Origin: an uncultured Lachnospiraceae bacterium
GTDB lineage: Bacteria; Bacillota; Clostridia; UBA1381
Assembly (NCBI GenBank): GCA_964447095.1
Contig: CAYUSE010000001.1
Span: forward strand, 4,576-68,575
Reading direction: 5' to 3'
DNA: 64,000 nucleotides
Shown: piece by piece, positions 41,480-63,098 of the stretch
Layout: every line of letters starts with the position of its first letter
Numbering within the stretch: the stretch's first letter is position 1
The notes under the pieces: generated by a model
Seen by the model: the letters and a program-made list of their open reading frames with translations, nothing else
Database searches by the model: none
What the model was told of the DNA's origin: nothing
Translations under genes and position numbers: made by a program

Positions 41480-41948
41480 GATATATCCTCCAATGTATTG
41501 TTTTATATAGAATATTGTATCATATAAAAATAACCATTGCAAGGCTGATATTTGTTAGAATAACGCCGCGTTTATTTATCAGCGCGAAGCATATTTGAAA
41601 CTGAGTTTTTTAGGTTTTTTTACTTAAATCATTGATTTTTTCACAAAAATGTGATAAAATATATTGGTAAATTTATGTAATAATTACAAAAAGTAAGTTA
41701 AGGTCATATAATTTCAGTCAAAATTCTTGTTTCTATTCGGGTAATATTTTAAAGTGCCGGTTGTTTTGTTTGCCGGAATATTTAAGAATATCCGGCGGTT
41801 ATAAACAAATAATTGTAAAAAAATATAAAGGGGGATTTCAATGCTATGGTTTAAAGATGGTTTGTAGATATTATTGTTTAGTTAGAAATGTAAGCATATT
41901 ATTTTTCGAAATGTAATTTATAAATTGGAAGGAGAAAACAAGAGACAA

Positions 41949-45600: not shown

Positions 45601-45613
45601 GGGATATGCTATC

Positions 45614-46900: not shown

Positions 46901-46924
46901 GTTATTATTATATGACAAGTTAAC

Positions 46925-46969
46925 GGCATATTGCATGATTAATTTTAATGCAATATGCCAATTTTTTTT
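46925..46969 (+). terminator. Intrinsic terminator after SLH paralog B
   Basis: The stem GGCATATTGCAT / ATGCAATATGCC has an 11-nt loop and is followed by AATTTTTTTT. Confidence 0.75.
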
Positions 46970-46990
46970 AAATCTCCTCAACGCCCTTGA

Positions 46991-48229: not shown

Positions 48230-48382
48230 ATGTGCAAAAAAGAAAAAGAAATAGAAAATGAAAAAGCTCAGGAGATAAACCTTGAAGATTTAAGTCAAAT
48301 CACGGGTGGCGCCGGCAAAACAACGCGTCCGCCGACAGTTACTATACACAAATATACTGAAACCGTGAAAGAAAAAGCATAA
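48230..48382 (+). CDS. Double-glycine-leader peptide precursor 1 (50 aa)
   Basis: Not in the ORF track because it is under 60 aa. It encodes MCKKEKEIENEKAQEINLEDLSQITGG/AGKTTRPPTVTIHKYTETVKEKA. The leader matches the class II bacteriocin/pheromone GG-leader pattern: hydrophobic at -4, -7 and -12, acidic at -8 and -9, and GG at -2/-1. An AAAGGA...AAGGA purine-rich SD lies upstream. A homolog lies at 62824 and a C39-peptidase ABC exporter lies 2.3 kb downstream. Confidence 0.75.
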   Translation: MCKKEKEIENEKAQEINLEDLSQITGGAGKTTRPPTVTIHKYTETVKEKA

Positions 48383-48391
48383 ATGATTAAG

Positions 48392-48426
48392 AATCCTTTG
48401 CTGTGTATGCAGCAAAGGATTTCTTA
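48392..48426 (+). terminator. Candidate intrinsic terminator after peptide gene 1
   Basis: The stem AATCCTTTGCTG / CAGCAAAGGATT has a 6-nt loop and is followed by TCTT, a weak U-tract. Confidence 0.5.
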
Positions 48427-48494
48427 AAGAAGAATATAGAAGATTAAAAAGAAAATTTTGAATAAGAATATAAAGTTGTTATTGGTAAAATCTA

Positions 48495-48523
48495 TTGAAA
48501 ATTATTTTGATGTAATGTATAAT
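48495..48523 (+). promoter_or_regulatory. Near-consensus sigma-A promoter for the exporter/giant-protein operon
   Basis: TTGAAA (48495-48500), exactly 17 nt of spacer, then TATAAT (48518-48523), ~75 nt upstream of ATG 48598. Confidence 0.55.
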
Positions 48524-48597
48524 ATTTACATAGAAGGGATGCATAGAACTGACATCAGAAAACACTGATAATTTTTCTTGTCTTTTGGAGGAAGGTT

Positions 48598-49740
48598 ATG
48601 AAAAAAATATATATACTTTTAATTTCTGTCTTTATATTATACATACTGTGCGGCTGCGGAGGCAATCCGCTGACACAAACTGTAAAAATTGCCGTTATGG
48701 GAAATCAGGCTGATTTTTATCCCGGCTACAAAGAGGGTATTGAGAGAGCGGTAAATGATTTGAATAAGGAATATGCCGACAGCGGATGTACCGTAGAATA
48801 TGAATTTTACAATGATAACGGAAATTATGAGAAAGGCGCGGCTATTATTGATACACTCGCATCAGATAAAAGTATTACGGCTGTTATCGGAGCAGTGGAT
48901 ATGGATATAAACAAAACCGCCGCTCATGTTTTTAACGAAGCGGAGAAGCTTTTTGTTATTCCGTTTTTTCTCTACGATAGTGTGTATGAGGATAATTATT
49001 ATGATACAGTGTTTTCGTTGTGTAATTCGGCAAAAACGGTCGGAGATATACTGCGCGGCGCGGCGGCGGATACAAAAGCCAAACGTTGGGCGGTATGTGC
49101 GGCAGAAGGTGAGTTTGAACGCACGGAAATGAACGGATTTTTGCAAAACAGTGCGGCAGACGGTATTGCAGTTGTTGACTGTGCGAGTATGTCAATGCTT
49201 GTAAATCAATTTGATGAAGTCTATAAGTATTGGGATATTTTAGGCGTTGAGGGTGTCGTAATGTTTCCCTCAGGCAGTGAGGGCTTTGATATTTTAAAAA
49301 AAATAAAGAAAAAAAATCCCGATATTATTTGTGCGGGAGATACTGCTTTTGACAATAGTGTAGTTATGGATAATGATCCTGAGCTTCTGGCAGCAATGAA
49401 CGGATTTATAATGGCGGACGAATTCATGCTGCGTAATGAAGCTGATGGTGAGAACAGTTTAATTACAGATATGGAAGAAGAATACAAACAGAAAACAGGG
49501 AACGATTTTGACGTATGGTATATCCAGGCATATAATGCCGTGAGAATGATTGCTGATACAGCAATACAGAATCGGGTCTTTAATTCTGCGGATATAGCAA
49601 AGCTTCTGCACGAAAATGATTACAATGGCTTATATCAGCGTTTTAAGTGTGATGAAAAAGGATTGCAGGTCACGGACGTATTTAAATACAGCGTAATGGA
49701 TGAAAGGGGATACTTCGAGGAATATGAATTGAAGGATTAG
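48598..49740 (+). CDS. Orphan lipoprotein with a type-1 periplasmic-binding-protein fold (LivJ/Peripla_BP_6-like)
   Basis: Signal peptide plus lipobox (LYILCGC/GG). KIAVMGNQADFYPGYKEGIERAVNDLNKEY...ITAVIGAVDMDINKTAAHVFNEAEKLFVIP resembles branched-chain-amino-acid-type binding proteins. No cognate permease or ATPase of that type is nearby. Confidence 0.6.
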   Translation: MKKIYILLISVFILYILCGCGGNPLTQTVKIAVMGNQADFYPGYKEGIERAVNDLNKEYADSGCTVEYEFYNDNGNYEKGAAIIDTLASDKSITAVIGAVDMDINKTAAHVFNEAEKLFVIPFFLYDSVYEDNYYDTVFSLCNSAKTVGDILRGAAADTKAKRWAVCAAEGEFERTEMNGFLQNSAADGIAVVDCASMSMLVNQFDEVYKYWDILGVEGVVMFPSGSEGFDILKKIKKKNPDIICAGDTAFDNSVVMDNDPELLAAMNGFIMADEFMLRNEADGENSLITDMEEEYKQKTGNDFDVWYIQAYNAVRMIADTAIQNRVFNSADIAKLLHENDYNGLYQRFKCDEKGLQVTDVFKYSVMDERGYFEEYELKD

Positions 49741-49748
49741 GTGAAAAT

Positions 49749-50630
49749 ATGCAAAATTTATTCAGAAAAGAAGCGCTTGAAAGCTTTTCTTCAAACAACG
49801 GAATTACTAAGGGGATACGCGCGGTAAGCATTAAAGCAGTGATTTTTACGGTTTTGATTGCAGTATGCTCAGCAGCCTTTGCTGTGTGGCTTGTGTTCGG
49901 AACGGTTTATGAAACTGTATCCGTAAGCGGAGTAATATGGCCCGCGGAAAATAACGGCGGCGTGTATGCAAAATCCGGAGGAGTTATAACAAAGACGGTC
50001 GTTGCTTCGGGTGACATTGTGAAAACGGGAGATATTCTCGCCGTAATTCCGCAAGAAGATATTTTAACAAAAATAAAAAATAAAAAAGAGAGCGGCGCTG
50101 CGGACGAGGAGCTTAATACGCTGTATGACGCATACGACAGACTTTCCGTGGCACGCTCGAATATTGATGGAATTGTGACGAATATTGCCAATGAAAATAT
50201 TTGTATAAACAAAGGTGATAAAATAGCAGAGGTTGTGCCGTACAGTGAAGACGGCAATAATAAAATACTGACTGCGTTCATTCCTTCTGACAAAAGCGGT
50301 CTTGTAAAGCTTGGAATGGAAGCTCAGGTAATGCCTGATTTTGCTCCGCGCGAAAAATACGGATATATAAAAGCATATATTTCAGGAATTTCATCTTATT
50401 CTGTTACGGGGCAGAGCATAAAAGACTCAAACAGTGAACTGTTTTTATCAGAGTTTGACGAAAGAGAAAGCTATATACAGCTTGAAATAACACTTGTATC
50501 GGATGCAAATGCTCAGAGCCGGCTGAAATGGTCAAATCCTAACAGCGGAAGTACAGATGTTGCTATGGGAACGGTATGCGGAGCAGACATAGTAATTAAA
50601 AAATGCCGTCCGTATGAATGGTTGTTTTAG
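49749..50630 (+). CDS. HlyD-family membrane-fusion / bacteriocin secretion accessory protein
   Basis: N-terminal FRKEALESFSS followed by a single TM (AVIFTVLIAVCSAAFAVWLVF). Lipoyl-like hairpins are present (GGVITKTVVASGDIVKTGDILAVI and GIVTNIANENICINKGDKIAEVVP). It sits 9 nt upstream of the C39 ABC gene. Confidence 0.7.
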   Translation: MQNLFRKEALESFSSNNGITKGIRAVSIKAVIFTVLIAVCSAAFAVWLVFGTVYETVSVSGVIWPAENNGGVYAKSGGVITKTVVASGDIVKTGDILAVIPQEDILTKIKNKKESGAADEELNTLYDAYDRLSVARSNIDGIVTNIANENICINKGDKIAEVVPYSEDGNNKILTAFIPSDKSGLVKLGMEAQVMPDFAPREKYGYIKAYISGISSYSVTGQSIKDSNSELFLSEFDERESYIQLEITLVSDANAQSRLKWSNPNSGSTDVAMGTVCGADIVIKKCRPYEWLF

Positions 50631-50639
50631 GAGGGCATT

Positions 50640-52781
50640 ATGGAGAAGGTAAAAAAGGTACGTCCCATACTGCAAATGGAAGCGACTGAATGCGGCGCAG
50701 CATCGCTTGCCATGATTTTAGGCTATTACGGCAAGACTGTAACGCTTGAGGAGCTAAGGCGCGAGTGCGGAGTATCGCGAAACGGCGTAAACGCGAAAAG
50801 CATTGTAAACGCGGCGCAGTATCATGATTTAAACCCGAGAGCTTTGCGCGTGAATATTGAAGGTGCGGAAAGAGTAAAAACACCTGCGGTCATACATTGG
50901 AATATGGACCATTTTCTTGTGCTTTGCGGATTTAATAAACGCGGCGCAGTGCTTGCAGATCCGGCATACGGGATTAGGACCGTAAGCATGGAGGAATTTT
51001 CAAAATCTTTTACCGGCATTGTAATAGAGCTTACTCCTGCAGAGAATTTTAAAAAAGATAAGGGAGGAAAAAATGCAAATGATTACATAAGCTTCTGCGT
51101 AAAGAGTTTTTTGCCGAATATATTTTATTTTATACTGCTTGAATTATGCGCAATTATAGGAAGCGGCGCGGTATTGTTTTTAAATTCCGTGTTCATAGAT
51201 AAAATTCTTATCGGTGAGAACACGCAGAATTTAACGATTATACTTAAAACGCTTTTATGCGCAGGATTTATAACAGCGGCGGCAGCTATACTTAATACGA
51301 ATATTAGGCACAGGATAGGCAAACAGCTAAATATGAAGATAAATTCGGGATTTATTGAGCGTATGCTAAGGCTGCCGGTTGAATTTTTTGCGCAGCGAAG
51401 CGAGGGAGATTTGGCAAACTGTCAGAATGCGAATATGCAGATGGGCGCGAAGCTCAGCAGTATGATGTCGCCTGTACCCGGATATATAATGCAGATTATT
51501 ATATATTTTATATTGATTGCCGTATTGGACGCGCATATTGCTTTTATAGGAATATTATGCGCGTCGGCAAATATTTGTGCAATGATAATAAGTTCTCAAA
51601 AATATGAGGAAAAGATGCGTTCCTACAGCCGTGATATGGGCGCTTTGCAGAGCGATATTTCACAAACGATTGATATGATTGAAACAATAAAAGCCTGCGG
51701 CGCTGAAGACGCTGTATTTGCTCGGCTTATGGCGGCGGGTACGCAGACAGTTAACACAAAAACCCAGATTGACAAAACAGGAGTATATACAACCGGTTTG
51801 TTTTCCTTTTTAAATGCTCTCGGCGCAGGCGCTGTGTTAATTGCCGGTATATGGAAGATACTTGCCGGTTCTATGACTATGGGTATTCTGATAGCGGCGC
51901 AGGCTTTTGTCGCGGCAATGCTGGAACCCTTGGGAGATGCAGTAAATGCAGGAATAGAAATGCAGACCTTAAAGGGCGAAACAGCGCGTACAAATGATGT
52001 TATGCACTATAACGAGGATGATAAATTCCTTGATGACAGCATTGAACAGACAAAAGAAATTGACGGAGATATTGAACTGAAAAATATCAGCTTTGGCTAC
52101 AATCCGCTTGACGCACCGCTTATAGAAGGATTTAACCTTGTGATAAAAAAGGGCGGCAGTATTGCGATTACAGGAGCAAGCGGCAGCGGAAAATCCACAG
52201 TTGCAAAAATCATTGCGGGGCTTTACCGTGAGGATAGCGGATGTGTTACCTTTAACGGCACGTTAAGAAAGGAAATAAATCATTATTATTTTTATTCAAA
52301 AACAGCAGTGGTAAGTCAGAATATACGGCTGTTTGACGGTACGGTGCTTGACAATATAACAATGTGGGATGACAGTATTCCTTATGACGAAGTTGTTGCG
52401 GCGGCAAAGGCGGCGTGCATACATGACGATATAATAGGCAGAAGAAACGGCTACCGTGAAATTGTTACGGAAAACGGCAGAAACTTTTCAGGCGGTCAGC
52501 GGCAGCGTATTGAGATAGCGCGCGCTCTCGTAAAAAAACCGTCCGTAATTATAATGGATGAAGCAACAAGCGCGCTTGATGCAGATACTGAGGAAACCGT
52601 TATGAATAATATAAAAGCAATGGGAATTACTCGGATAGTTGTTGCTCACAGACTGTCAACAATTATGGACAGTGATGAAATCATAGTTATGGAAGACGGT
52701 AAAATCTCCGAGCGCGGAACACATGACGAGCTTATGATGAAAAACGGCGCATATTGTGCATTGGTAAGGAGTGTGGGATAG
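50640..52781 (+). CDS. Peptidase-C39-domain ABC exporter (bacteriocin/peptide-cleaving, ATP-binding and permease)
   Basis: The N-terminal C39 domain has the catalytic Cys in LQMEATECGAASLAMILGYYG and His in VIHWNMDHFLVL. A 6-TM domain follows, with Walker A GASGSGKST, signature FSGGQRQR and Walker B VIIMDEATSALD. Confidence 0.9.
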   Translation: MEKVKKVRPILQMEATECGAASLAMILGYYGKTVTLEELRRECGVSRNGVNAKSIVNAAQYHDLNPRALRVNIEGAERVKTPAVIHWNMDHFLVLCGFNKRGAVLADPAYGIRTVSMEEFSKSFTGIVIELTPAENFKKDKGGKNANDYISFCVKSFLPNIFYFILLELCAIIGSGAVLFLNSVFIDKILIGENTQNLTIILKTLLCAGFITAAAAILNTNIRHRIGKQLNMKINSGFIERMLRLPVEFFAQRSEGDLANCQNANMQMGAKLSSMMSPVPGYIMQIIIYFILIAVLDAHIAFIGILCASANICAMIISSQKYEEKMRSYSRDMGALQSDISQTIDMIETIKACGAEDAVFARLMAAGTQTVNTKTQIDKTGVYTTGLFSFLNALGAGAVLIAGIWKILAGSMTMGILIAAQAFVAAMLEPLGDAVNAGIEMQTLKGETARTNDVMHYNEDDKFLDDSIEQTKEIDGDIELKNISFGYNPLDAPLIEGFNLVIKKGGSIAITGASGSGKSTVAKIIAGLYREDSGCVTFNGTLRKEINHYYFYSKTAVVSQNIRLFDGTVLDNITMWDDSIPYDEVVAAAKAACIHDDIIGRRNGYREIVTENGRNFSGGQRQRIEIARALVKKPSVIIMDEATSALDADTEETVMNNIKAMGITRIVVAHRLSTIMDSDEIIVMEDGKISERGTHDELMMKNGAYCALVRSVG

Positions 52782-54915
52782 CGTGCATACAAAATTAAGA
52801 GAAGAAAACGAGAAAATACAAGAAAAAAACTATAAAGCATCAGCACGCGCATACGAAAATATGAATGCGGCGCTTATTGGTGAAACTGACCTTGACGGGG
52901 TTAATGCAGTCCTGAAATTTTTAAATATAAAGGAGCGCGTTGACGGCAGTCTTTCGACTTCGGAGCAGCTTAAATTTATAGAAGAAAAGTTTTTTATTAA
53001 GATGAGATACGTGGAGCTTGACGAGGATTGGTATATAACGGCGGCAGTTCCGATGCTTGTAAAAACTGATGAAGGACGCTGGCTTGCTGTGATACCAAGG
53101 GCTGACGGAACATGCTGCTGTATAGATAACGGCAGAAAAATAAAGGTAACGCATAAAAATGCAGGACTGTTTACAAACAGTGCAATGTATTTTTATAAGG
53201 TAATGAAAAGCGATAAAATCACAATGCGGGATTTGTTTTCGTTTATGGTGAAATGCATATCGAAAAAAGGCATGATTGCCGTTCTTGCCGCGTCAGTGTT
53301 TACAGCTTTTGCGGGAATGCTTGTGCCGTGGGCGAACAGCTTTATATTTTCAAGGATAATTCCCGCAGGTGAAATATCGGGAATAGCGGCAGCGGCTGCG
53401 CTGATACTTTCTTCTGTGCTTGCCGCGGCAATACTCGGACTTTTGCAGTCGCTTATTCTTACCAACTCAATGCTTAGGACGGATACATACATTCAGAGCG
53501 CAGTATTTTCCCGTGTTTTGTCGCTGAGGACAGAGTTTTTTAAGACTGCAAAGTCAGGCGAGCTGTCACGAATGATAACAGAATTTTCCGATATAACAAA
53601 AATTGTATCCGTAAGAGGCATAAGCGCGAGTATCAGCATAGCGCTGTCGCTGGTATATCTTATACAGATTTATATATATGCTCCGGAACTGTTCGGAGTG
53701 GTTATATTATTTTCCGTTCTGCTCTGTGTAATGATGATTGCGGAGAGTGTGCTGAGTTCAAAATGGATGAGAAAATATTCTTCTTCGCTGTCGAAGATGT
53801 CAGGCTTTTGTTACGAGCTGTTTTCAGGCATTGAGCAGATAAAGCTGAACGGCGCGGAGGCAAGAATGATGCGCCGGTGGAGCGAGCGTTATCTTGATGC
53901 GTCGCTAAATGAGGATAAGCCGTTTTTGCTAAAATATTCGGATGTATTTTATAAGCTGATAAGGTTATTTACAACTGCCGTTATATTTCTGCTCGGCATG
54001 CGGCTGACTGCTTCGGACTATATTGCATTTTCATCGGCGTATGGAGCATATACCTCGGCAAGTGTAGGAGCAGCGGTTATTATACAAATGATTGCGGGTT
54101 TCCGTTCTGCATATTCGCTTATAAAGCCTGTACTTTATGCGGAATGTGAGGAATACGGCTCTGAAAAAAAGAAGCCTGAAAGGCTGAACGGCGAAATTAC
54201 GGTATCAGATTTGCATTTCCGCTACGATAAAGACTCGCCCTATGTTTTAAACGGTCTGTCAGTACATATACGCGCAGGTGAAAGCGTGGGAATAATAGGT
54301 ACATCAGGATGCGGAAAATCAACATTGATAAGATTACTGCTTGGCTTTGAGAAAGCAGAGAAGGGCAGCATCTACATAGATGGCTTTGACCTGAGGGAGC
54401 TTGATTTAAAAAGCTGCCGTCAGAAAATCGGAGCCGTTCTCCAGAATACAGGGCTAATATCGGGAGATATTTATTCAAATATCACGATAACGAAGCCGGC
54501 TGCAAGTATGGAAGAGGTGGCGGAGGCTGTGGAAACGGCAGGGTTAACCGACACTATAGCCGCTCTGCCTATGGGTTTGCATACACCTGTAAGTCAGGAA
54601 AACTGTACTCTTTCGGGAGGACAGCGGCAGAGAGTGCTTATTGCAAGAGCGATTATCGCTAAACCGTCAATTCTAATTTTTGACGAAGCGACCTCAGCGC
54701 TTGACAATATCACTCAGGCGAAAATAACGGAAGGTGTAAACAAGCTTGATTGTACAAAAATTATTGTTGCGCATAGATTGTCTACAATCGAGAGCTGTGA
54801 CAGGATTTTAGTTATGGATAAGGGGGTGATTGTGCAGGAAGGAACATGGGCTGAGCTGAAAAAAACTGATGGATTATTTAAACAGCTTGAAAAAGCAAAT
54901 TATCAGTTAAAATAA
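52771..54915 (+). CDS. Second ABC exporter (permease plus ATPase) lacking a peptidase domain
   Basis: The ~150-aa N-terminal region has no C39 Cys/His motifs. A TM domain follows, with Walker A GTSGCGKST, signature LSGGQRQR and Walker B ILIFDEATSALD. The GTG at 52771 overlaps the upstream gene; the in-frame GTG at 52783, 1 nt after the upstream stop, is better spaced from AAGGAG. Confidence 0.85.
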   Translation: MWDSVHTKLREENEKIQEKNYKASARAYENMNAALIGETDLDGVNAVLKFLNIKERVDGSLSTSEQLKFIEEKFFIKMRYVELDEDWYITAAVPMLVKTDEGRWLAVIPRADGTCCCIDNGRKIKVTHKNAGLFTNSAMYFYKVMKSDKITMRDLFSFMVKCISKKGMIAVLAASVFTAFAGMLVPWANSFIFSRIIPAGEISGIAAAAALILSSVLAAAILGLLQSLILTNSMLRTDTYIQSAVFSRVLSLRTEFFKTAKSGELSRMITEFSDITKIVSVRGISASISIALSLVYLIQIYIYAPELFGVVILFSVLLCVMMIAESVLSSKWMRKYSSSLSKMSGFCYELFSGIEQIKLNGAEARMMRRWSERYLDASLNEDKPFLLKYSDVFYKLIRLFTTAVIFLLGMRLTASDYIAFSSAYGAYTSASVGAAVIIQMIAGFRSAYSLIKPVLYAECEEYGSEKKKPERLNGEITVSDLHFRYDKDSPYVLNGLSVHIRAGESVGIIGTSGCGKSTLIRLLLGFEKAEKGSIYIDGFDLRELDLKSCRQKIGAVLQNTGLISGDIYSNITITKPAASMEEVAEAVETAGLTDTIAALPMGLHTPVSQENCTLSGGQRQRVLIARAIIAKPSILIFDEATSALDNITQAKITEGVNKLDCTKIIVAHRLSTIESCDRILVMDKGVIVQEGTWAELKKTDGLFKQLEKANYQLK

Positions 54916-54935
54916 AAAAGAGGAGGAAAAGCAAT

Positions 54936-57900
54936 ATGCAAAAAAGGTTGAAAAGGTTGTTGAGCGGCTTGCTTGCGGTAAGTATGCTCGCATCCGTTGC
55001 TCCCGCTGCGCTTGCCAAAGAGCAGGCTGTAAGCGGAGCATCAGAAATTTCATTTTCGGCGGCAAAATATAATGTGTCGGAAAATGATGGAAAAATTAAA
55101 ATAAAAATCGTCCGTAAAGGCGGAAATGACCGTTCTGTTGAGGTCGCATTCAAAACCGCAGACTTTACAGCGGAGTACGGTATGGATTATATCGTTTTTG
55201 ATGAGGACGGAAACGAATTGCCTATGGCAGACGGTATTACGCCTAGCGAGAGCGAGTTCATTGAAACGAGAGGCAAGAGTGTTTTAAGCGAAACGGATAA
55301 GGAAGAGTCCGAAATTGATAACCTTGAGCCGACAGAAGAACCGGAAAAAGACCAGCCCTCAACTGTTATCGGTGAGAATGGCACGGTTGAAGAAATTGCC
55401 GCTCCCGTTGACACGGCAGAACAGGCGGAAACGAAAAAAGCTTCCACAGGCTCCGCACTTTTGGACGCGCAGGCAGAATATTTAAATCTGCCTGCTGAGA
55501 ATGATAATACAAGTGCGGCGGTTGAAAATATTCTTACCGATGTAAATAAATATTTTCAGGAAGCGCAGGGCGCTGTCGGAGTAGTTGCTTTCGAGGAGGG
55601 TGAAACAGAAAAAGAAGTTACAATCAAGCTTATCGACAACGATATTCCTCAATCGGATAAAATTGTTTTGCTGTCGCTTATGGGAGTAAACGGCGATGAA
55701 GAAACTTCGCTTGCCGCAAATCCCACATCATATATAAATATTATGGATGATGAAGAGTACGAAACTCCGATTATTGAGCCTGATACAAATGAAATCACGC
55801 TGTCGGAGGATAATCCCGGCTATGAACTTATTCTTTCAAGAACAAGCGGAGTGGATTACTATACCTCCGTTCTTGTTTCAACAGTCAAGGGTACCGCGCA
55901 GGAAGGATATAACTATGATAAAATTGAAAACTCGAGCGTGTCATTTGCGCCGGGCGAGAAAGAAAAGAAGGTTAAAATTTCAGCGGAAAATTTCGGAGAT
56001 GAAATGAGCTTTGGCATACGCCTTGAAAGCGACGGAACGTGTGAGATTTCAGATGAATACATAACTGTTACAATGTCGGCAAAGCCGTCGGAGAACAGTG
56101 ATGCTCCGTCGGATGCAAATTCATTGCAAAACGGTGATGTTTCACTTATGTTGGCAGAAGATAATGCGCGTTTGGGAAGCGTTATCGGAACAAGTACAAC
56201 AACTAAAAGACTTGATGATTTTAATTTTGTACACGGTCCGAGTACGGGAAAACAGGACGGTTATCACCGAACATCATGGAACAGCAGCTCAAGCTGGACA
56301 GATTATTATGTATATGAAACATACAAGAAAAGCGGCAGAACATGGGTAGCGGAAAATGCGCTGAATGTGAGCGGCGTTGACAAGATAAATTTATGGCATC
56401 AGAATGACGGAGACTATAACGGACGCTGGGCAGCGTATCATATATTTATTGAGCTGCTCAGAAGCTGGGATAGAAATAATTATTCCTCCGGCGGAGACAA
56501 AAATATCCGCAAGGACGGAAGACACGGCTGGACGAGCGATGATATGGATGTATCAAGTCTTAATGGCGAGTATTACCTGCGTTTCGGTGTCAGAAACGAC
56601 GGCTATGCTTCGGATAACGGCAGAGCGTGGCTCGGCAATCCGGTAACGCTTACATGGCATCAATACAATCTGAACATTCAGAATAAGCAGGTATTTAACC
56701 GTCTTTCATACGATTACGCCGACAAAACCGGCGAGGCGCTGAAAATTGCGTACACTGACGGCAAGGACGATTATGACTATATTCCGTCTGTAAAAATTGT
56801 GAATAACAGCGGCAATGAAATAAGCGGCTTTTATGCAAATGCAAATCAAACCATAAAGCCCATTTCAAACAATCCGAGCCTGGACACAAAATACGGAATA
56901 GAGCTTGAGGGCGTATATCTTTATACAAAGGATAATGACAGTCTTTATAAAAAAGACAGAACATATCCTTATGCAGACCATTGGTATGAAGACAATACTA
57001 TCTGGGTACCTGCAAGCGGTGTGAAGGCAGATCAAAGTCTTGCGGAGAAACTTACCTCAAAGTTTGGCAGTAAATCAATAAAGGTTATGCCTAAGTTCAG
57101 GCAAAAAACCGTTACACTTAATATACATAATACGGACAACGAAAAAACATATATTGCCAATATGAACAGCAAAAGCGCGGAAAGCTATCGTGACTGGGGC
57201 GCTAATGGATATTATAATCAATATACATTCCCGATATATTCGCAAATTAAGGTACGCGCAGTTGCAGCAAAGGGCAAGACGGTTACAGGCTTTAATATTG
57301 ACCTTTGGTCACAGCCGACAGACAAAGACCCGATTTATTCCGACAGCAGCGCGCCGGAGAGAATGACGTATACTCTGACGGAGAATATGAGTTTTTATCC
57401 GAGAACGGAAAATCAGGGAATGAATGCGGCATATATGCCGGGGGCGGATAAAGTAATAAATGATTTGTCGGGTCGTGTATTTACCCAACCGTCTGCGGGA
57501 GAAAGCGGCAGCGATATTAAATATTCGGATTTAAACGGAAACCTTAATATTCAGACTGTTTATCCCGGTATGCTTTGGACAATGCGCGCAACGGCTCCGG
57601 ACGGATATTATGTAAAATGGACAAACGGAACGGGAGATATTAAGAACGTAAACGGAAAAATTGATGTAAGCTCAGACCCGAATATCAATGAAGAAACGGA
57701 AAACACCAAAAAGTTTAAAAACCTGTACACTCCTGTTTACGGCGATATTATGTCAGGAACAATAGTGCAGAACAATACAAAGTATTACTATGAGTTTGTA
57801 AAGAACGGAAATGAAAACGGCAAAGTACAGGGAAAGGTATTGCGCGAAAAAGGCAGCTTTTACGATGTGGTTTGCAATAAGAATCTGCAATTAGCGCCGG

Positions 57901-60900
57901 CTGCGGCAATACAGGTCAGCGTCGCGGGAACAGCAGGCTTTACAGATGAAAACGGCGATTTTGTTATAGAGCTTAAAAATGTACCGACATCGGGACATGT
58001 AAGCGTAATCGTTGACGATAACGGTACAATGTACCCAACAACGGCGCTTGCAAATTATATGTCAATAACACTTCCTGCGTATGAATGCTTTAAGCCGAAA
58101 TCACTCAGCGTTCGATATAATGATGCTTCGGCAAATAAAATAAACGGAACGGTTGTCAATATTAAAAACGATACCTTAAATATTGTTTCTCAGGCAGAGA
58201 GTAACGGTTCACTTCAGCCGACAGGAGCGAAATATTACATACATAAGGTGAACGGAACGGTAATTGACTGTTCAGCAGATAACAGATTTACAAACAGCTT
58301 TGCAAACGGCACGGCATCAATATCATTCAATCCGAAGTCAGTTATGGACGCAGGAGATAAAATATATGTAGCGTTTATCGACCAAAATGATAAGGAATAT
58401 AAGTCGATGGACATAGGCTACGACTTTGTTGCGCCGCTGAATTTGAGAACGTTTATGTTCCCGCTTATAGGAAGCTCGTTGTTAGACAATACATACAGCA
58501 GCGCTGTAGAGCTTATAGGCGACCCTCTCGGTGATGTGTCGCTCGGTAAGCTCGGCTTTGATGAACCGGAAACAGAAATGGTTACTCCCGATGGTATGGA
58601 CCCCGAAAAATACAGCTATGCAATGTCTACATACAAATTCGGTGATTTCAGCAAAGCAATTAAGACCTTCTCATCAAAAGACAACAAGGACAATAAAGAT
58701 GATAATAATGATGAGAATGATAAAGGGACAAAGAGCGAAGAAACAGCAAAGGATATAAAGAATGCCGTAAAAGACAACGGAAAAGAAACGGAAAACGGCG
58801 GTTATAAGACAAACAAATCTTTCGCGTGGGAGTTTTCGCCGAAGGCTGCCTTTGCAATGCAAATTACAACGCGTAAGGACGGCAATTCATACAAGTATTA
58901 TTTTGAAGAGCTTGATTTCCTCGTAGGTCTTGATTACAAAGTGGACGGCAAAATAACAGTTACCCTGCCGATAGGTATGAATATTATTATTACAGGTACG
59001 CTGTCGGGAGATGTTGCAGGCATATTCCAGCTGAAAACAAACTACACGGGCGATTCGACATGGAATAATAATAAGGTTGAATACACTGCGGAGAGCTTCG
59101 GCTTATTTGAGGAAATAGACCATGTTGACAGAAAAGCATATCTTATGGTTAACCCGAATATTTCTCTCGGACTTGGAGTTGAATGGGCAATTATAGAAGT
59201 CGGAGGAAACGCCAATTTCAAATTCGATATGGATTTTGAATTTGGATTAAACGCAGGCTCTTTAGGGCATCGGATGTATGGAGATATGACATATAATTTT
59301 GATTATTATATCAAGGTATTGTCTATAAAGGTTTATTCCGGTAAAACGAAAGACCGCACGGCAGAGCTTTTCTCCGAAAATGCGGACGGACATATTGAGC
59401 CCGATATAATTGCGGGACTTATGAGCATTGAAGGTAATGAAATTCAATCCATACCGACAACAAGAGATTACCTTAACAATACCTCCGGCTGGAACGGAAC
59501 CGACAGCAATATGTCGCTGTTTAATATAGACACGGATAATACAGAAGAATTAGATCTTATAAGAGGCGCTTATCCAAGCACGAAATCAACGCTGACACCG
59601 TTTGGAGACGGCAAAATACTGTTGACGTTTATCGATGATGACATATATAGAAGTGAAATAAACAGGACAGCCTTGTGTTATTCAATCTATAACGGTGAAA
59701 CATGGTTATATCCTCATCAGATTGACGATGACGGTACATTGGACGATTATCCGAATGTATTTGACTTAGGAGATAAAATCATGATATCGTGGTCGTCCGC
59801 AGACAAAGTATTTAATGACAACGCTACCGCGGTGCAGGCTTTAACGGCTCTTGACATAAAGACAGTATTCTTTGATAAAGAAACAGAAACCTTTAGTGAG
59901 GTTATGCAGCTTACACATACGACAGATGAGGATTATACGGCGGATGTACAGCCGAGGGCGGCGTATGACAGTGAAACAGGCAGAATTATTCTGTACTACA
60001 CAAAGACAGAATATACCGAAGCTCAAAATCTTACTGATTTGATAGACGCGCCGTCAGTTATCGCATATCGTTTCTATGAGAACGGCAAATGGAACGATGA
60101 ATCAAGCTATACCGAGGAAGAATTGTCAGATATGACAACAGAGGAAAAAGAAGCGTATAAAACAAACTGGTACGGTCAGCGTTTCCTTGACACAAGACTT
60201 AACAAGACAAGCGCAGATATGTTAAGAATTGTTGACTCGGACGCAATTTCCTACAACGGACTTGCGCTTTACGCATGGACGGTTGACTATGACAAGAACT
60301 TGAATACGGTAGACGACAGAGATGTATTTATGCAAATATATAACTTCTCAGAAAACAGTTTTACTCACATTATAAAAATAACTTCGGATTCGGGAGCATA
60401 TTCAATGCCGCATTTCGGCAGATATAATGATGAAACATATCTGTTCTATTCTGCGATGGGCGCCTTGGACGGAAGTGAAAACGAGGAACAGAGCGGCATC
60501 GCATATCTTGATGTAAGCGATATTATAAAGAACGGCAAATATACTAAGGTAAGTGAGAATAATACTGAGTATTACAAGCTGGAATACACAACTATGGCTG
60601 CCGCATCGACAGACCAAGACGGCAATGAAATTCCGGCGCACAATGAAACAGTTCAAATTCAGCCCTCATACGCAGTAACGGTTGACGGCTACATAAATAA
60701 CTACTGTGTAGATGTTGACAGTGATGAAAAAATGTATCTGACATGGACAAATTCCGATGAAAATGGTTCAAGACAGATATATACCTCAATTTTTGATATT
60801 GCTCCTATGGCAGGCGCAGAAGCAGACGAGGACGGCTCAATAAGCAAGAACTATGAATGGAGTGAGGCATTTAAGCTGACCAATGCGGAAAATACAGCAT

Positions 60901-62822
60901 ACGGAAACATTGACTCAGCAGTCACAAACGGCAAACTCTATACTACTTCAATTAAAATGCCATATACAGAAAATAAGAGTCTTAATGAATCGAGGGCAGA
61001 CTTTGTACTGATTGAACATACACCCTATGGAAGACCGGTAACGGTTGAGGAAAATGCATTGATAGCTGATACAAAGTATATTTATCCGGATACAGGATTT
61101 ACGCTCACATCAACAATTAAAAACGAGGGAACAAAGCTTATCGACAAGCCTGTGACATTTAAGTTTACAATGACCTCAAACGGAAAAACAACCGAAATCG
61201 GTGAACAGACCATAGAAACCGCATGGGGTGCAGGAAAAACTATGAGCGCCTCTGTAAATGTACCCGGTATTGAAGAAATCAGTGACGATTTGACATTTAA
61301 TACTGAGATTACGGTTGATGATACGGTTATCAATCAGGAAATGAAAGCCGTTAAAGAATACAGTGTTGTCACCGACGGCGATGCGGCTCTTGATGAGATT
61401 GCCGGCGGTCACAGACTGCATATTCCTCTCAGGAATGAGGGCAATATATCGTCAGCGCCTGTCAGCGTTAAACTCTATACCGCAAAAGACAGCGAAACTG
61501 ACGAGCTTATAGATGAATATACAATAGAGTCAATCGGCACAAATTCGTCTGCTGCCGTTGATGAAACTGTTGAAATTCCCGACAGCGCTTATGCTATAGA
61601 AAACGGTGACGGTATCGCTGATATTATAGCGGTAATTGAAGCTGACGGCAAGGAGCTTGGAAGGCTTGAAACAAAGGCGCATAAATCATTTGACGCAAAA
61701 GCAATCGAAACAATGAATAAGGTTACTGACGTATCAATCAAGGGAAGCAATAAGATTTCCGCAAAATATCTTGATGATATTGAAATTGAAACACAGATTA
61801 GAGGTACGGCAGGTGAAGATGTTACTGTTATGTGGGTAAGCGATAATAATGATATTGTTTATGTAAGAGATGATAATACTTTGTTTGCATCAGGCGGCGG
61901 CACAGCAACGCTTACAGGTTATGTTATTCCGTCAGTTCAGAACATAAAGTTTAGTTATGACGGTACTTCTGAAAAAGCCAAAGTGCTTGATACAATTCCG
62001 TCAACGCTTTATAAGACCGTCACAGCGGAAGTAACAGTAGATAAGGACGAAGAGCCTACAGCCTCTCCGACAACAGAGCCTACAGCTTCTCCGACAGCAG
62101 AGCCTATAGCTTCTCCGACAACAAAACCTACAGCTTCTCCGACATCAAGACCAAATCGCGGCGGAGGCGGAGGAGGTTCATCAGTAAAGTCAACGCCGAA
62201 ACCAACGTCAACGGCTCAACCGCAGGAAACATCAGCTCCGCAGAATACAACAGAGCCTGCAGCAGAAAATGCAATGTTTGACGATACCGCAAACCATTGG
62301 GCAAAGGATTATATTGACAGACTTGCAGCGGACGATATTGTAAACGGTGTGGTTAACAGAATATTTAATCCGAACGGCAATATCACAAGAGCGCAGTTTG
62401 CGCAGATTTTGATGAATACAGGACTTGTTGAAGAAGGAAATATTGATGTTCCGGCATTTACTGATGTTGATGGTGACGCATGGTATAATGAGGCTGTAGT
62501 CTGGGCAGTATCCTGCGGTGTTGCGAAAGGCATGAGCAATGAAATATTTGAGCCTGAAGGTCTGATAACAAGAGAACAGATGGCAGTGATGGTAAATCGA
62601 TTTATCAAGCTTGCAGGCATAGAGGCAGAAGACGGCGAAGCGGTAAGCTTTACCGATTCGGATAATATATCCTATTGGGCAATAGCTGATGTTGAAGCGC
62701 TTGCTGCAAAAGGAATACTGAAGGGACGGGATACAGGAGACTTTGACCCGTTGGCAAATATGACTCGTGCCGAAGGTGTGGTTGTTATATGCAATATTTT
62801 AGATGCAAAGGAGGCAAAATAA
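54936..62822 (+). CDS. Giant (2628-aa) SLH-anchored surface protein: Calx-beta-like x2, large unassigned central region, CARDB-like x2, Big_2-like, Pro/Thr linker, SLH x3
   Basis: Sec signal peptide (LLAVSMLASVAPAALAKE). The Calx-beta pattern is AFKTADFTAEYGMDYIVF ... VVAFEEGETEKEVTIKLIDNDIPQSD ... INIMDDEE. CARDB-like segments start at YIYPDTGFTLTSTIKNEG... and HRLHIPLRNEGNISSAP.... The Big_2-like segment is VTVMWVSDNNDIVYV...GGGTATLTGYVIP. The C-terminal SLH repeats are FDDTANHWAKDYIDRLAADDIVNG, FTDVDGDAWYNEAVVWAVSCGVAKG and FTDSDNISYWAIADVEALAAKGILKG. Confidence 0.85.
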   Translation: MQKRLKRLLSGLLAVSMLASVAPAALAKEQAVSGASEISFSAAKYNVSENDGKIKIKIVRKGGNDRSVEVAFKTADFTAEYGMDYIVFDEDGNELPMADGITPSESEFIETRGKSVLSETDKEESEIDNLEPTEEPEKDQPSTVIGENGTVEEIAAPVDTAEQAETKKASTGSALLDAQAEYLNLPAENDNTSAAVENILTDVNKYFQEAQGAVGVVAFEEGETEKEVTIKLIDNDIPQSDKIVLLSLMGVNGDEETSLAANPTSYINIMDDEEYETPIIEPDTNEITLSEDNPGYELILSRTSGVDYYTSVLVSTVKGTAQEGYNYDKIENSSVSFAPGEKEKKVKISAENFGDEMSFGIRLESDGTCEISDEYITVTMSAKPSENSDAPSDANSLQNGDVSLMLAEDNARLGSVIGTSTTTKRLDDFNFVHGPSTGKQDGYHRTSWNSSSSWTDYYVYETYKKSGRTWVAENALNVSGVDKINLWHQNDGDYNGRWAAYHIFIELLRSWDRNNYSSGGDKNIRKDGRHGWTSDDMDVSSLNGEYYLRFGVRNDGYASDNGRAWLGNPVTLTWHQYNLNIQNKQVFNRLSYDYADKTGEALKIAYTDGKDDYDYIPSVKIVNNSGNEISGFYANANQTIKPISNNPSLDTKYGIELEGVYLYTKDNDSLYKKDRTYPYADHWYEDNTIWVPASGVKADQSLAEKLTSKFGSKSIKVMPKFRQKTVTLNIHNTDNEKTYIANMNSKSAESYRDWGANGYYNQYTFPIYSQIKVRAVAAKGKTVTGFNIDLWSQPTDKDPIYSDSSAPERMTYTLTENMSFYPRTENQGMNAAYMPGADKVINDLSGRVFTQPSAGESGSDIKYSDLNGNLNIQTVYPGMLWTMRATAPDGYYVKWTNGTGDIKNVNGKIDVSSDPNINEETENTKKFKNLYTPVYGDIMSGTIVQNNTKYYYEFVKNGNENGKVQGKVLREKGSFYDVVCNKNLQLAPAAAIQVSVAGTAGFTDENGDFVIELKNVPTSGHVSVIVDDNGTMYPTTALANYMSITLPAYECFKPKSLSVRYNDASANKINGTVVNIKNDTLNIVSQAESNGSLQPTGAKYYIHKVNGTVIDCSADNRFTNSFANGTASISFNPKSVMDAGDKIYVAFIDQNDKEYKSMDIGYDFVAPLNLRTFMFPLIGSSLLDNTYSSAVELIGDPLGDVSLGKLGFDEPETEMVTPDGMDPEKYSYAMSTYKFGDFSKAIKTFSSKDNKDNKDDNNDENDKGTKSEETAKDIKNAVKDNGKETENGGYKTNKSFAWEFSPKAAFAMQITTRKDGNSYKYYFEELDFLVGLDYKVDGKITVTLPIGMNIIITGTLSGDVAGIFQLKTNYTGDSTWNNNKVEYTAESFGLFEEIDHVDRKAYLMVNPNISLGLGVEWAIIEVGGNANFKFDMDFEFGLNAGSLGHRMYGDMTYNFDYYIKVLSIKVYSGKTKDRTAELFSENADGHIEPDIIAGLMSIEGNEIQSIPTTRDYLNNTSGWNGTDSNMSLFNIDTDNTEELDLIRGAYPSTKSTLTPFGDGKILLTFIDDDIYRSEINRTALCYSIYNGETWLYPHQIDDDGTLDDYPNVFDLGDKIMISWSSADKVFNDNATAVQALTALDIKTVFFDKETETFSEVMQLTHTTDEDYTADVQPRAAYDSETGRIILYYTKTEYTEAQNLTDLIDAPSVIAYRFYENGKWNDESSYTEEELSDMTTEEKEAYKTNWYGQRFLDTRLNKTSADMLRIVDSDAISYNGLALYAWTVDYDKNLNTVDDRDVFMQIYNFSENSFTHIIKITSDSGAYSMPHFGRYNDETYLFYSAMGALDGSENEEQSGIAYLDVSDIIKNGKYTKVSENNTEYYKLEYTTMAAASTDQDGNEIPAHNETVQIQPSYAVTVDGYINNYCVDVDSDEKMYLTWTNSDENGSRQIYTSIFDIAPMAGAEADEDGSISKNYEWSEAFKLTNAENTAYGNIDSAVTNGKLYTTSIKMPYTENKSLNESRADFVLIEHTPYGRPVTVEENALIADTKYIYPDTGFTLTSTIKNEGTKLIDKPVTFKFTMTSNGKTTEIGEQTIETAWGAGKTMSASVNVPGIEEISDDLTFNTEITVDDTVINQEMKAVKEYSVVTDGDAALDEIAGGHRLHIPLRNEGNISSAPVSVKLYTAKDSETDELIDEYTIESIGTNSSAAVDETVEIPDSAYAIENGDGIADIIAVIEADGKELGRLETKAHKSFDAKAIETMNKVTDVSIKGSNKISAKYLDDIEIETQIRGTAGEDVTVMWVSDNNDIVYVRDDNTLFASGGGTATLTGYVIPSVQNIKFSYDGTSEKAKVLDTIPSTLYKTVTAEVTVDKDEEPTASPTTEPTASPTAEPIASPTTKPTASPTSRPNRGGGGGGSSVKSTPKPTSTAQPQETSAPQNTTEPAAENAMFDDTANHWAKDYIDRLAADDIVNGVVNRIFNPNGNITRAQFAQILMNTGLVEEGNIDVPAFTDVDGDAWYNEAVVWAVSCGVAKGMSNEIFEPEGLITREQMAVMVNRFIKLAGIEAEDGEAVSFTDSDNISYWAIADVEALAAKGILKGRDTGDFDPLANMTRAEGVVVICNILDAKEAK
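62052..62147 (+). repeat. 24-nt x 4 in-frame tandem repeat encoding the (E/K)P(T/I)ASPT(T/A/S) linker
   Basis: The four units are GAGCCTACAGCCTCTCCGACAACA, GAGCCTACAGCTTCTCCGACAGCA, GAGCCTATAGCTTCTCCGACAACA and AAACCTACAGCTTCTCCGACATCA. They lie inside the giant CDS just before a Gly run and the SLH domains. Confidence 0.9.
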
Positions 62823-62823
62823 T

Positions 62824-62979
62824 ATGTCAGACGAAAAAAAGACAACTGTGAAAAACGATGAAATCACTGAACAGGAAATTAGTCTTGACGAATTGGATAA
62901 TGTGACAGGCGGTTCGATTGGCAATGTAAAATATACAAAGACAGTCGATATCAGCGGTGATACCAAAAGAAAAGCATAA
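62824..62979 (+). CDS. Double-glycine-leader peptide precursor 2 (51 aa)
   Basis: Not in the ORF track. It encodes MSDEKKTTVKNDEITEQEISLDELDNVTGG/SIGNVKYTKTVDISGDTKRKA. A perfect SD AAGGAGG (62808-62814) lies inside the end of the giant gene, and the ATG sits 1 nt after its stop. The leader and the core motifs (KYT-x-TV, C-terminal K-x-KA) are homologous to the 48230 peptide. Confidence 0.75.
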   Translation: MSDEKKTTVKNDEITEQEISLDELDNVTGGSIGNVKYTKTVDISGDTKRKA

Positions 62980-63052
62980 ACACAGATAAGATTAAAAAGA
63001 GAACCGTCGTTTCGTGGCGGCTTCCAAATTTGACAAAAATAAAACAGAAAGA

Positions 63053-63098
63053 AGGCTGTATCAATGATAAAAGCGTTGATACAGCCTAAATTTTTTTT
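63053..63098 (+). terminator. Intrinsic terminator closing the exporter/giant-protein/peptide operon
   Basis: The stem AGGCTGTATCAA / TTGATACAGCCT has an 11-nt loop and is followed by AAATTTTTTTT. Confidence 0.8.

Follow-up and report, generated by a model that had tools for sequence, protein, structure and literature searches.

What does a peptide exporter do in front of the gene for a giant cell-surface protein? The question is raised by a 64-kb stretch of DNA from an uncultured Lachnospiraceae bacterium (assembly GCA_964447095.1, contig CAYUSE010000001.1; the whole stretch is called the window below), in which two small open reading frames (ORFs) with double-glycine (GG) leaders, P1 and P2, lie on either side of genes for a periplasmic-binding-protein (PBP) lipoprotein, a HlyD-like membrane-fusion/accessory protein (MFP, or adaptor), a C39-peptidase ABC exporter (ABC1), a second ABC exporter (ABC2) and a 2628-residue giant protein with S-layer homology (SLH) repeats. 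GG-leader peptides that accompany C39 ABC exporters are usually classed as bacteriocins or as competence or bacteriocin pheromones. The original prediction, made from the letters of the window, proposed instead a secreted-peptide system tied to the surface mega-protein, and our comparison of related loci supports this view in about 30 species, at every visible junction and through the co-variation of peptide type with giant class. Taken together, PBP, HlyD-like adaptor, C39 ABC, second ABC, giant and GG peptide appear to form a conserved six-gene module of gut Clostridia related to Monoglobus. The comparative evidence is sequence comparison, mostly of contigs from metagenome-assembled genomes (MAGs), and statements on the absence of sensors or cassettes hold for the 64 kb of the window alone, not for the rest of the genome.

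A conserved peptide family paired with giant surface proteins

We confirmed P1 and P2 (Table 1) as genuine small ORFs of the kind first described. ORF reading recovered both at the predicted positions, a six-frame regular-expression scan of the entire 64-kb window found the GG-leader motif in these two small ORFs only, and P1 proved homologous to P2 (BLASTP E = 1e-5). The leaders are of the ordinary GG type and 27-30 residues long, within the ~15-30 residues typical of double-glycine leaders; they end in ...INLEDLSQITGG (P1) and ...ISLDELDNVTGG (P2), both of which match the consensus, in that positions -4, -7 and -12 are hydrophobic, -8 is acidic and -2/-1 are GG. An AAGGAGG ribosome-binding site is embedded within the final codons of the giant gene, 9-10 nt 5' of the P2 ATG. 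Pfam and NCBIfam hold no model for P1 or P2, and neither peptide scores above any family threshold. Exact-sequence look-ups of P1, P2 and the 714-aa form of ABC2 returned no record; the same look-up with the C39 ABC protein led to a metagenome contig of a sister strain (L001).

A word-index homologue search with the peptide profile returned same-species variants only, and an exhaustive search with the profile, over 1.84 billion representative proteins, retrieved 46 clusters at E <= 0.001, nearly all of 46-63 aa. P1, P2 and 17 orthologues align end to end, and the GG-leader pattern is present in all 19 of them as well as in the 46 database representatives. The cores are of two types with near-equal length: type A (S-I-x-N-V-x-Y-T-K-T-x-x-I-S-x-D-T-x-x-K-I), which includes P2, and type B ((G)AFDNVPRVPExxIDDSLRxKI, with variants carrying LPPTVPEN), of which P1 is a divergent member. 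Exactly 21 residues make up the core in 29 of the 44 that we extracted; the core pattern is S-[IL]-x-[ND]-V-x-Y-T-x-T-x-D-I-S-x-D-T-K-x-K-I, with near-invariant positions T10, I13, S14, D16, T17, K20 and I21, and the sampled cores contain no Cys, have a mean GRAVY of -0.79 and carry a mean net charge of +1. Lack of conservation or of purifying selection in relatives had been named at the outset as grounds for giving up the idea. We found the ORFs to be conserved and under purifying selection, with pN far below pS: within each core type the synonymous differences are saturated (pS 0.75-0.77) and the non-synonymous ones low (pN 0.25-0.28).

Conservation is also higher in the core than in the leader, and usually higher than in the giant. 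Among class A pairs (giant classes are defined below), identity ranges over 0.33-0.86 for the core, 0.31-0.63 for the leader and 0.36-0.69 for the giant, and in loci L008 and L071 the cores share 18 of 21 residues though the giants are only 51% identical and the L071 exporter is ~38% identical to that of the window. Variant precursors occur in the family as well: P0160 has two tandem leader-plus-core units in one 85-aa ORF, in P0155 a leader-like unit that ends in VTAG occurs three times, and P0132 is a 180-aa protein that ends in a leader and a type A core, its start probably being mis-called.

Homologues of ABC2 form a tight clade at 54-84% identity, beyond which identity falls to 35%. A profile search with this clade over one-genome-per-species contigs yielded 62 loci, ~30 of them within the clade; the clade consists entirely of MAGs from gut or rumen, assigned to Monoglobus, Ornithomonoglobus, Hominilimicola, Alangreenwoodia, or uncultured Clostridia/Oscillospiraceae. 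The order PBP, MFP, ABC1, ABC2 and giant (2500-2870 aa) is kept in ~30 species-level MAGs wherever the contig extends far enough, the PBP gene being the first module gene in all related loci that show that end; the giant gene is inverted in L010 and L013. A survey of gene neighbourhoods for a giant gene followed directly by a GG-leader ORF, as proposed with the original prediction, found the two together at every visible junction: in 17/17 loci with a visible giant 3' end, such an ORF, of 46-65 aa, is placed between -26 and +100 nt relative to the giant stop codon, and the GG peptide adjoins the giant in L068 and L069 too. Ribosome-binding sites of the AAGGAGG type precede each of the 18 peptide ORFs examined, except at the upstream ATG of L018, and a hairpin follows most of them. 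These loci show a real peptide gene, which is either predicted to be co-transcribed with the giant gene or placed directly beside it.

The pairing is also kept where the surroundings differ. In L043 and L071 the giant and GG peptide stay together although their exporters share only 37-39% identity with that of the window; L083 and L086 have the peptide gene directly 5' of the giant and the exporter 3'; and in L085 a C-terminal giant fragment is followed by the peptide gene. A distant giant homologue in L070 (26% identity) has neither peptide nor exporter nearby. The exporter can also stand without an adjoining cargo gene, as in L014, L016 and L027, where neither giant nor peptide lies beside it. 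In the first two of these loci, which are from rabbit-gut MAGs, sequence resembling a tRNA gene by eye lies on the opposite strand just 5' of the exporter's consensus promoter (L014:5384-5774, L016:1-285), and in L027 a GH115 enzyme gene occupies the giant's place. Sets of PBP, MFP, ABC and ABC genes at 22-43% identity were seen farther away, in a Clostridiaceae MAG (L035:5622-12043) and a Spirochaetaceae MAG (L039:134-6183), with no giant and no GG ORF detected at either set; the PBP-containing exporter may be an older architecture that the module adopted.

BLASTP coverage splits the giants into two classes, and the peptide types follow them: type A peptides accompany class A giants in 6/6 cases (the window's included) and type B peptides class B giants in 12/12 (including the giant upstream in L001). 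L086 carries a third giant class of 3116 aa. Common to the giant classes are the Calx-beta N-terminus, the SLH end and a ~480-aa region at ~30% identity (window giant aa ~1495-1985). By contrast, the mean identity of PBP, MFP, ABC1 and ABC2 is the same whether the loci compared have one peptide type or different ones; for the PBP, whose L015 (type B) and L022 (type A) versions are 87% identical, the values within and between types are 0.494 vs 0.498, and on these values we rejected the PBP as determinant of peptide-type specificity.

A comparison of L022 (type A) with L068 (type B) locates the boundary of the exchanged segment. The two loci share 99-100% DNA identity over ~7.8 kb (L022:1-12157 vs L068:10-12163), taking in part of a kinase gene, a regulator gene, an extra 1208-aa gene, PBP, MFP and the 5' part of ABC1. 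Blocks of 73-81% identity interrupt the similarity at kinase residues ~120-416, in mid ABC1, at the end of ABC1 and start of ABC2, and in part of ABC2, the ABC genes being unusually mosaic in this lineage, L015 and L069 included. Similarity then stops within a few bases of the giant start codon, and the giant-plus-peptide cassettes differ. The giant-plus-peptide cassette is therefore the unit that is exchanged.

Exporter operon, giant protein and upstream unit in the window

Pfam and NCBIfam domains bore out the predicted gene order of PBP lipoprotein, MFP, C39-ABC, second ABC and SLH giant, the tight spacing was confirmed, and promoter and terminator scans did the same for the near-consensus promoter and the strong terminator (Table 1). 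The intergenic gaps are, in order, 8, 9, 1 (or an 11-nt overlap with the upstream GTG), 20 and 1 nt. The alternative concerns ABC2, which has two in-frame GTG codons, at 52771 (overlapping ABC1 by 11 nt) and at 52783 (1-nt gap); the latter start agrees with the 710-aa product called in L001 and with homologues of 707-711 aa. For the PBP, the closest solved structure is 4mlc, an 'extracellular ligand-binding receptor'. ABC1 has the make-up of a peptidase-containing ABC transporter (PCAT): a C39 domain (PF03412, aa 8-135) with Gln12, Cys18 (ATECGAAS), the His in HFLVL and Asp-Pro in the expected motifs, joined in one polypeptide to membrane and nucleotide-binding domains (ABC_membrane 1.5e-16, ABC_tran 1.4e-26). 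The exporter looks functional, judging from these catalytic motifs and from the consensus GG leaders of the neighbouring peptides. A degenerate C39 domain in the ~160-aa N-terminal domain of ABC2 was considered and rejected, no similarity being detectable.

The label of an NHLM/NHLP-type exporter, attached to the trio at first sight, fared less well. The HMM comparison suggested at that stage gave a strong match to PF03412, and TIGR03794, TIGR03796 and TIGR03797 were indeed the best NCBIfam hits of MFP, ABC1 and ABC2, but all three scores stayed below the trusted cut-offs of these equivalog models (119.5 vs 156.2, 756.9 vs 853.3 and 582.1 vs 709.4 bits, respectively), and the peptides matched no model above threshold. 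The reported lack of modification, immunity and sensor genes held: in the window ORFs scanned with Pfam, no gene for a kinase or regulator, for immunity or for tailoring was found. As regards the sensor, this is true of the window but not of the relatives, several of which carry AgrC/ComD-like kinases and LytTR regulators beside the module (see below).

The giant belongs to a family (P0062-P0087, all 2530-2840 aa) annotated only as 'S-layer homology domain-containing protein'. It begins with a Sec signal peptide (MQKRLKRLLSGLLAVSMLASVAPAALA, followed by KE) and Calx-beta domains, continues with a beta-sandwich chain, a long-hairpin region, a beta-propeller (aa ~1535-2025), Ig/CARDB-like domains and a Pro/Thr linker, and ends in three SLH repeats (4.6e-32; three stretches, aa ~2448-2620) that match the SLH domain of Sap (3pyw). 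The Sec signal and the tandem SLH repeats are those of an SLH-anchored cell-wall protein; a type I-secreted giant adhesin would differ at both ends, for here the signal is N-terminal and the C-terminus is the anchor. Pfam searches with 400-500-aa slices of both giants found nothing in the central ~1600 aa, and a sequence search of solved structures returned only the Calx-beta domain, the SLH repeats and the Pro/Thr linker (matching circumsporozoite-protein repeats, a low-complexity hit). AlphaFold models built on alignments of 26-28 family members fill this gap: aa 405-1245 (pLDDT 82) are modelled as a beta-sandwich/Ig-like chain whose closest solved folds are contactins, SraP and Bap, and aa 1285-2365 (pLDDT 80) as low-confidence long beta-hairpins followed by a confident beta-propeller and Ig/CARDB-like domains. 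The best fold matches of the propeller, which falls in the ~480-aa region common to all giant classes, are integrin alpha ectodomains and sialidases. Neither sequence nor fold pointed to a catalytic family, and in its modelled form the giant resembles a binding protein or adhesin. Foldseek also matched anthrax protective antigen and factor XIII/transglutaminase, but with TM-scores of 0.1-0.16 and on account of generic beta-sandwich domains, and these matches were set aside. Just 5' of the propeller, aa ~1290-1485 (window 58800-59390) are alternately hydrophobic and polar and rich in Gly and aromatic residues; this stretch, which is kept in class A giants and in the 3116-aa giant of L086, is predicted to form beta-hairpins with strands of 20-25 residues (pLDDT 50-70) and resembles barrel- or pore-forming sequence.

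The two peptides had been described as bracketing one operon. Their positions are right, but each of them ends a giant-plus-peptide unit of its own, as L001 makes clear. This contig shares 99% DNA identity with the window across the aligning segments and encodes an identical C39 ABC protein, and upstream of its P1 gene, a variant with one residue changed, lies one intact 2451-aa Calx-beta giant of class B. The window holds the two ends of this giant (Table 1). The start of the chimeric ORF is 93% identical to aa 1-335 of the L001 giant, with DNA identity ending at 42866, and the C-terminal remnant, in which Pfam found no hit, is separated from it by ~4.1 kb (42867-46993) unrelated to the L001 gene. 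This insert holds two paralogous genes for SLH proteins with their own signal peptides (44308-45600 and 45572-46900; 48% identical). A true rearrangement or a fault of assembly may account for the break. Behind P1 lies a hairpin of its own, which is kept in L001 and fails the T-run criterion of the terminator scan. With this hairpin behind it and a class B giant in front of it in L001, P1 belongs to the upstream gene unit and not to the exporter operon; the repeating unit is therefore a giant gene, then a GG-peptide gene, then a hairpin. It is present twice in the window, the exporter genes standing at the front of the second unit. The segment that bears the exporter promoter (48427-48550) is an indel between the strains, with a shorter, unrelated stretch at L001:7880-7915, and because the promoter segment is replaced there, the exporter operon of L001 may be read through from the upstream giant-plus-P1 unit.

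Table 1. Features of the peptide, exporter and giant genes in the window
Feature	Coordinates	Strand	Properties
Chimeric ORF	41925..44294	+	First ~335 aa are the class B giant N-terminus (signal peptide and Calx-beta); remainder unrelated
C-terminal 359-aa remnant of class B giant	47102..48181	+	99% identical to aa 2093-2451 of the L001 giant; directly 5' of P1
P1	48230..48382	+	50-aa GG-leader precursor; leader MCKKEKEIENEKAQEINLEDLSQITGG, core AGKTTRPPTVTIHKYTETVKEKA (divergent type B)
Hairpin closing the class B giant and P1 unit	48392..48421	+	-22.6 kcal/mol, z = -6.7; strong stem, weak T-tract
Sigma-70-like promoter of exporter operon	48495..48523	+	TTGAAA-17-TATAAT; 11/12 matches; top site in region
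Type 1 PBP lipoprotein, first module gene	48598..49740	+	Peripla_BP_6 4.4e-19; lipobox
HlyD-like MFP	49749..50630	+	HlyD_3; best NCBIfam TIGR03794
C39-peptidase ABC exporter, ABC1 (PCAT)	50640..52781	+	Peptidase_C39 1.2e-34, ABC_membrane and ABC_tran; best NCBIfam TIGR03796
Second ABC exporter, ABC2	52783..54915	+	Without peptidase domain; best NCBIfam TIGR03797
Class A giant surface protein, 2628 aa	54936..62822	+	Sec signal peptide, N-terminal Calx-beta, three C-terminal SLH repeats
P2	62824..62979	+	51-aa GG-leader precursor; leader MSDEKKTTVKNDEITEQEISLDELDNVTGG, core SIGNVKYTKTVDISGDTKRKA (type A)
Intrinsic terminator of operon	63053..63098	+	14-bp stem (63053-63087) and T-run; -21.6 kcal/mol, z = -6.6; strongest in region

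Elsewhere in the window, 2762-24330 and 30919-34589 encode mostly large secreted proteins on the + strand, among them CBM9, Big_5 and DUF4886 proteins, a 1421-aa protein with four SLH repeats, and, with an 899-aa Listeria-Bacteroides-repeat protein after it, a protein that carries cohesin-like and copper amine oxidase N-terminal domains; on the - strand, 38693-41542 encodes a GH43/CBM/Big_2 enzyme. Rfam and tRNA scans of the window found no Rfam family and no tRNA gene.

Possible roles of the exported peptide

We favour, at a probability of roughly 0.4, the reading that the locus exports an unmodified signal peptide tied to production of the giant. The precursor would be cut after Gly-Gly by the C39 domain and then exported by ABC1/ABC2 with the adaptor, steps that we infer because the function of C39 ABC exporters is established and the leaders match the consensus, and the product would be a linear, hydrophilic and probably unmodified peptide of 21-23 residues. 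The giant leaves the cell separately, via Sec, and is held on the wall by its SLH repeats; with the giant taking this route and the peptide that of the C39 exporter, the two would meet only outside the cell. The mature peptide would be an extracellular signal, reporting production of the giant and feeding back on it; this is the weakest step. The sensor would be the adjoining AgrC/ComD-like kinase with its LytTR regulator in some lineages, and in this genome would lie outside the window.

In related loci such regulators adjoin the module in three arrangements. First, in L008, L022 and L068, a kinase of the AgrC/ComD type (multi-pass membrane, HATPase_c_5) and a LytTR regulator are encoded divergently from the module, and in L015 the LytTR regulator is the only part visible before the contig ends. 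At the operon head of L008, L015 and L022, which belong to a chicken-gut lineage, a direct repeat of TTTTGTGAT(A/G)AA occurs twice with a 20-bp period, ~30 nt 5' of TGgTATAAT (L008:2486-2515, L015:847-876, L022:2032-2061), and no other occurrence came up in the loci searched; the gene at the head of the operon in L015 and L022 is an extra 1210-aa one, 5' of the PBP gene. Second, an unrelated pair of kinase and LytTR regulator lies between ABC2 and the giant in L071, where a perfect 15-nt repeat, CGTCCATTCGCGCAG, occurs twice with a 20-nt period 5' of the giant-plus-peptide unit (L071:9759-9793). Third, in L083 a LytTR regulator alone is divergent from an operon of peptide, giant, PBP, MFP and ABC genes. 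The operon's GG peptide is the sole GG-leader ORF in each of these regulator-bearing loci. L012 carries an OmpR-type pair instead of a LytTR system. The recurrence of peptide-sensing-type kinases and LytTR boxes in three independent arrangements, in a layout like that of known inducing-peptide circuits, suggests a signalling role. At kinase residues ~120-416, L022 with its type A peptide and L068 with its type B peptide, a single A/B pair, share ~77% DNA identity, and this is what linked kinase and peptide alleles would look like; a metagenome scan for further co-variation of kinase and peptide yielded only one relevant locus, and the type B kinase of L015 is cut by the contig end.

Several points weigh against the signal. 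The LytTR regulators of the three arrangements are 24-33% identical to one another, and their kinases are alike only in the kinase domain. Most related loci have no adjoining LytTR system, and in the window itself there is neither a kinase nor a regulator among the ORFs scanned, the exporter promoter being a plain sigma-70 promoter without direct-repeat LytTR boxes. The first 120 kinase residues of L022 and L068 are identical despite the different peptide types, and the divergent block behind them may just reflect the general mosaic structure of the region. Conversely, the sensors of L008 and L071 are unrelated though their cores are nearly the same. Pheromones known so far usually diversify between species, whereas conservation of these cores extends across deep divergence; the gene usually linked to a pheromone gene is that of the kinase, not a regulated structural gene; and most inducing peptides that bind membrane-embedded sensors are amphipathic, whereas these are hydrophilic. 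The signal also leaves the PBP without a role.

The main rival reading, possible in our view yet doubtful, is that the peptide is a class-specific partner of the giant (ligand, cofactor, assembly factor or subunit), bound on the wall, for example at the propeller or as an added beta-strand, in which case regulation of the operon, in some lineages, would be all that the adjoining LytTR systems do. Peptide and giant adjoin in every arrangement, whether the peptide is 3' or 5' of the giant and whether the exporter adjoins, follows downstream or lies farther away, and as the class B unit of L001 illustrates, the pair can stand upstream of and outside the exporter operon. Peptide type tracks giant class and not the four exporter genes, and the breakpoint between L022 and L068 falls at the giant start codon, with exporter sides that are near-identical over most of their length and different cassettes. 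The constant length and near-invariant positions of the core suggest a conserved binding site, and the giant is modelled from folds of the binding type (integrin-alpha/sialidase-like propeller, Ig-like, Calx-beta) with no enzyme signature, the propeller region being common to three classes. Binding to a partner is, however, predicted from sequence and model, and no peptide/adhesin pair of this kind was found in the literature searched. The co-variation could follow from tight linkage of adjacent genes alone, the cores have no similarity to any segment of their own giant, so that sequence lends nothing to a mimic or strand-swap model, P1 is intact in the window although its giant is broken, and a partner leaves the recurrent peptide-sensing-type kinases beside the module unexplained. 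As a separate candidate, mimicry or replacement of a giant segment by the peptide was rejected, Smith-Waterman scores being no better than those of shuffled cores (z about 0).

In its fullest form, which we put forward tentatively, the partnership would amount to a two-part surface structure, made of a Sec-exported giant and a 21-residue peptide delivered by a PCAT/ABC/adaptor/PBP machine as obligate ligand, cofactor or strand, with the cassette as the functional and evolutionary unit, exchangeable behind an exporter that stays the same; the PBP lipoprotein might then receive or present the peptide. Signal and partner could also both be true, for example if the giant sequesters a peptide that is sensed by the kinase.

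We consider it improbable that the peptide is a class II (unmodified) bacteriocin, or another antagonistic or host-directed effector, with the giant as an unrelated neighbour. Bacteriocin and RiPP (ribosomally made, post-translationally modified peptide) families have leaders that are better conserved than their cores, and here the core is the better conserved part across deep divergence. Bacteriocins and microcins make up most of the GG-leader peptides that come with a C39 ABC exporter and a HlyD-type accessory protein (PMC7595303, PMC12219008), the models that the exporter trio matches best bear the name of NHLP bacteriocin export, and the type-A lantibiotic leader model is weakly matched, below cut-off, by the leader of P2 (E = 0.0032). 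Yet a Pfam census of 56 flanking proteins in related loci revealed no recurrent tailoring or immunity family, and no conserved small membrane protein of the immunity type was found in the module or its flanks. By sequence criteria the locus has neither an adjacent immunity gene nor a cationic, amphiphilic or hydrophobic, membrane-active core that varies among species, the cores being hydrophilic, nearly neutral and Cys-free. The fixed pairing with the giant and the co-variation of type and class would moreover be coincidence, and a bacteriocin locus appears unlikely. That the small ORFs are chance or untranslated sequences and the exporter serves cargo encoded elsewhere, as the missing family models and the solitary exporters of L014, L016 and L027 would allow, is effectively refuted by conservation: the window has only two such motifs, both where predicted, and to the selection pattern and 46 database clusters are added orthologues in >25 loci with ribosome-binding sites and hairpins.

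Significance and comparison with known systems

In the literature searched we found no description of an exported peptide paired with a giant surface protein. The parts are known: GG peptides, PCAT exporters, the layout of two ABC proteins plus adaptor, and SLH proteins. What is new is the fixed, class-by-class coupling of exported peptide to giant, the PBP as a constant part of the exporter, and a core that is better conserved than its leader. The exported peptide is tied to a surface protein of 2500-3100 residues at the level of single genes as well as of classes, and this in many uncultured Clostridia from gut and rumen, among them relatives of Monoglobus, Ornithomonoglobus and Hominilimicola. 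Were the peptide a signal, abundant fibre-degrading gut bacteria would possess a quorum-type circuit with a giant adhesin-like output; were it a partner, there would be a new way of building a surface structure, and PCAT exporters would have a new job. In both cases, a peptide family with a near-fixed 21-residue core is defined and gives a first functional handle on giants annotated only by their SLH repeats. Genome mining should not count such loci as bacteriocin clusters, and they are of interest for peptide signalling, for RiPP and bacteriocin mining and for the surface biology of gut Firmicutes.

ComC/ComDE, BlpC/BlpHR and PlnA/PlnBCD are three-component systems with inducing peptides. The module resembles such systems (ComC/ComAB/ComDE, BlpC/BlpAB/BlpHR, PlnA/PlnGH/PlnBCD, SilCR/SilDE/SilAB; reviewed in PMC7595303) in its short GG precursor and probably unmodified mature peptide of ~20 residues, in its C39 ABC exporter with HlyD-like accessory protein and, in several relatives, in the AgrC/ComD kinase, LytTR regulator and repeat boxes. 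It differs in that its peptide gene goes with a giant structural gene and not with a kinase gene, the second ABC and the PBP lipoprotein are fixed parts, most loci (the window included) have no adjoining sensor, the core is conserved across deep divergence without a split into pherotypes, and the output would be a surface mega-protein in place of bacteriocins or competence. With the NHLP/Nif11 bacteriocin export trio, for which TIGR03794, TIGR03796 and TIGR03797 are the models (Haft et al. 2010, PMC2887384), the module shares the HlyD-like protein, the ABC protein with peptidase and the ABC protein without, and these models are its best NCBIfam hits; unlike that trio, it scores below the trusted cut-offs, has a short ordinary GG leader that is not nitrile-hydratase- or Nif11-like, and adds the PBP lipoprotein and the giant gene. 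Modification enzymes of the TOMM (thiazole/oxazole-modified microcin) or lanthipeptide kind were not found among the scanned window ORFs or the 56 flanking proteins of relatives.

Two comparisons remain on the side of the cell surface. Loci of the LapA type, which encode Gram-negative giant Calx-beta/RTX adhesins, likewise have the gene of a giant, repeat-rich Calx-beta surface protein beside ABC and MFP genes. The LapA-type giant, however, is itself the cargo of the ABC exporter and carries a C-terminal secretion signal, whereas the giant here has an N-terminal Sec signal and an SLH anchor, and the C39 exporter has a small GG cargo of its own. In Synechococcus elongatus, the small GG-motif proteins EbfG and the exporter PteB have a role in surface and biofilm behaviour (PMC4997328). 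That system belongs to a cyanobacterium with an outer membrane, and its proteins are larger, unrelated in sequence and without a giant partner gene; nevertheless, with a GG-motif product and a C39 ABC exporter, EbfG and PteB are the closest precedent for a role that is neither that of a bacteriocin nor that of a pheromone.

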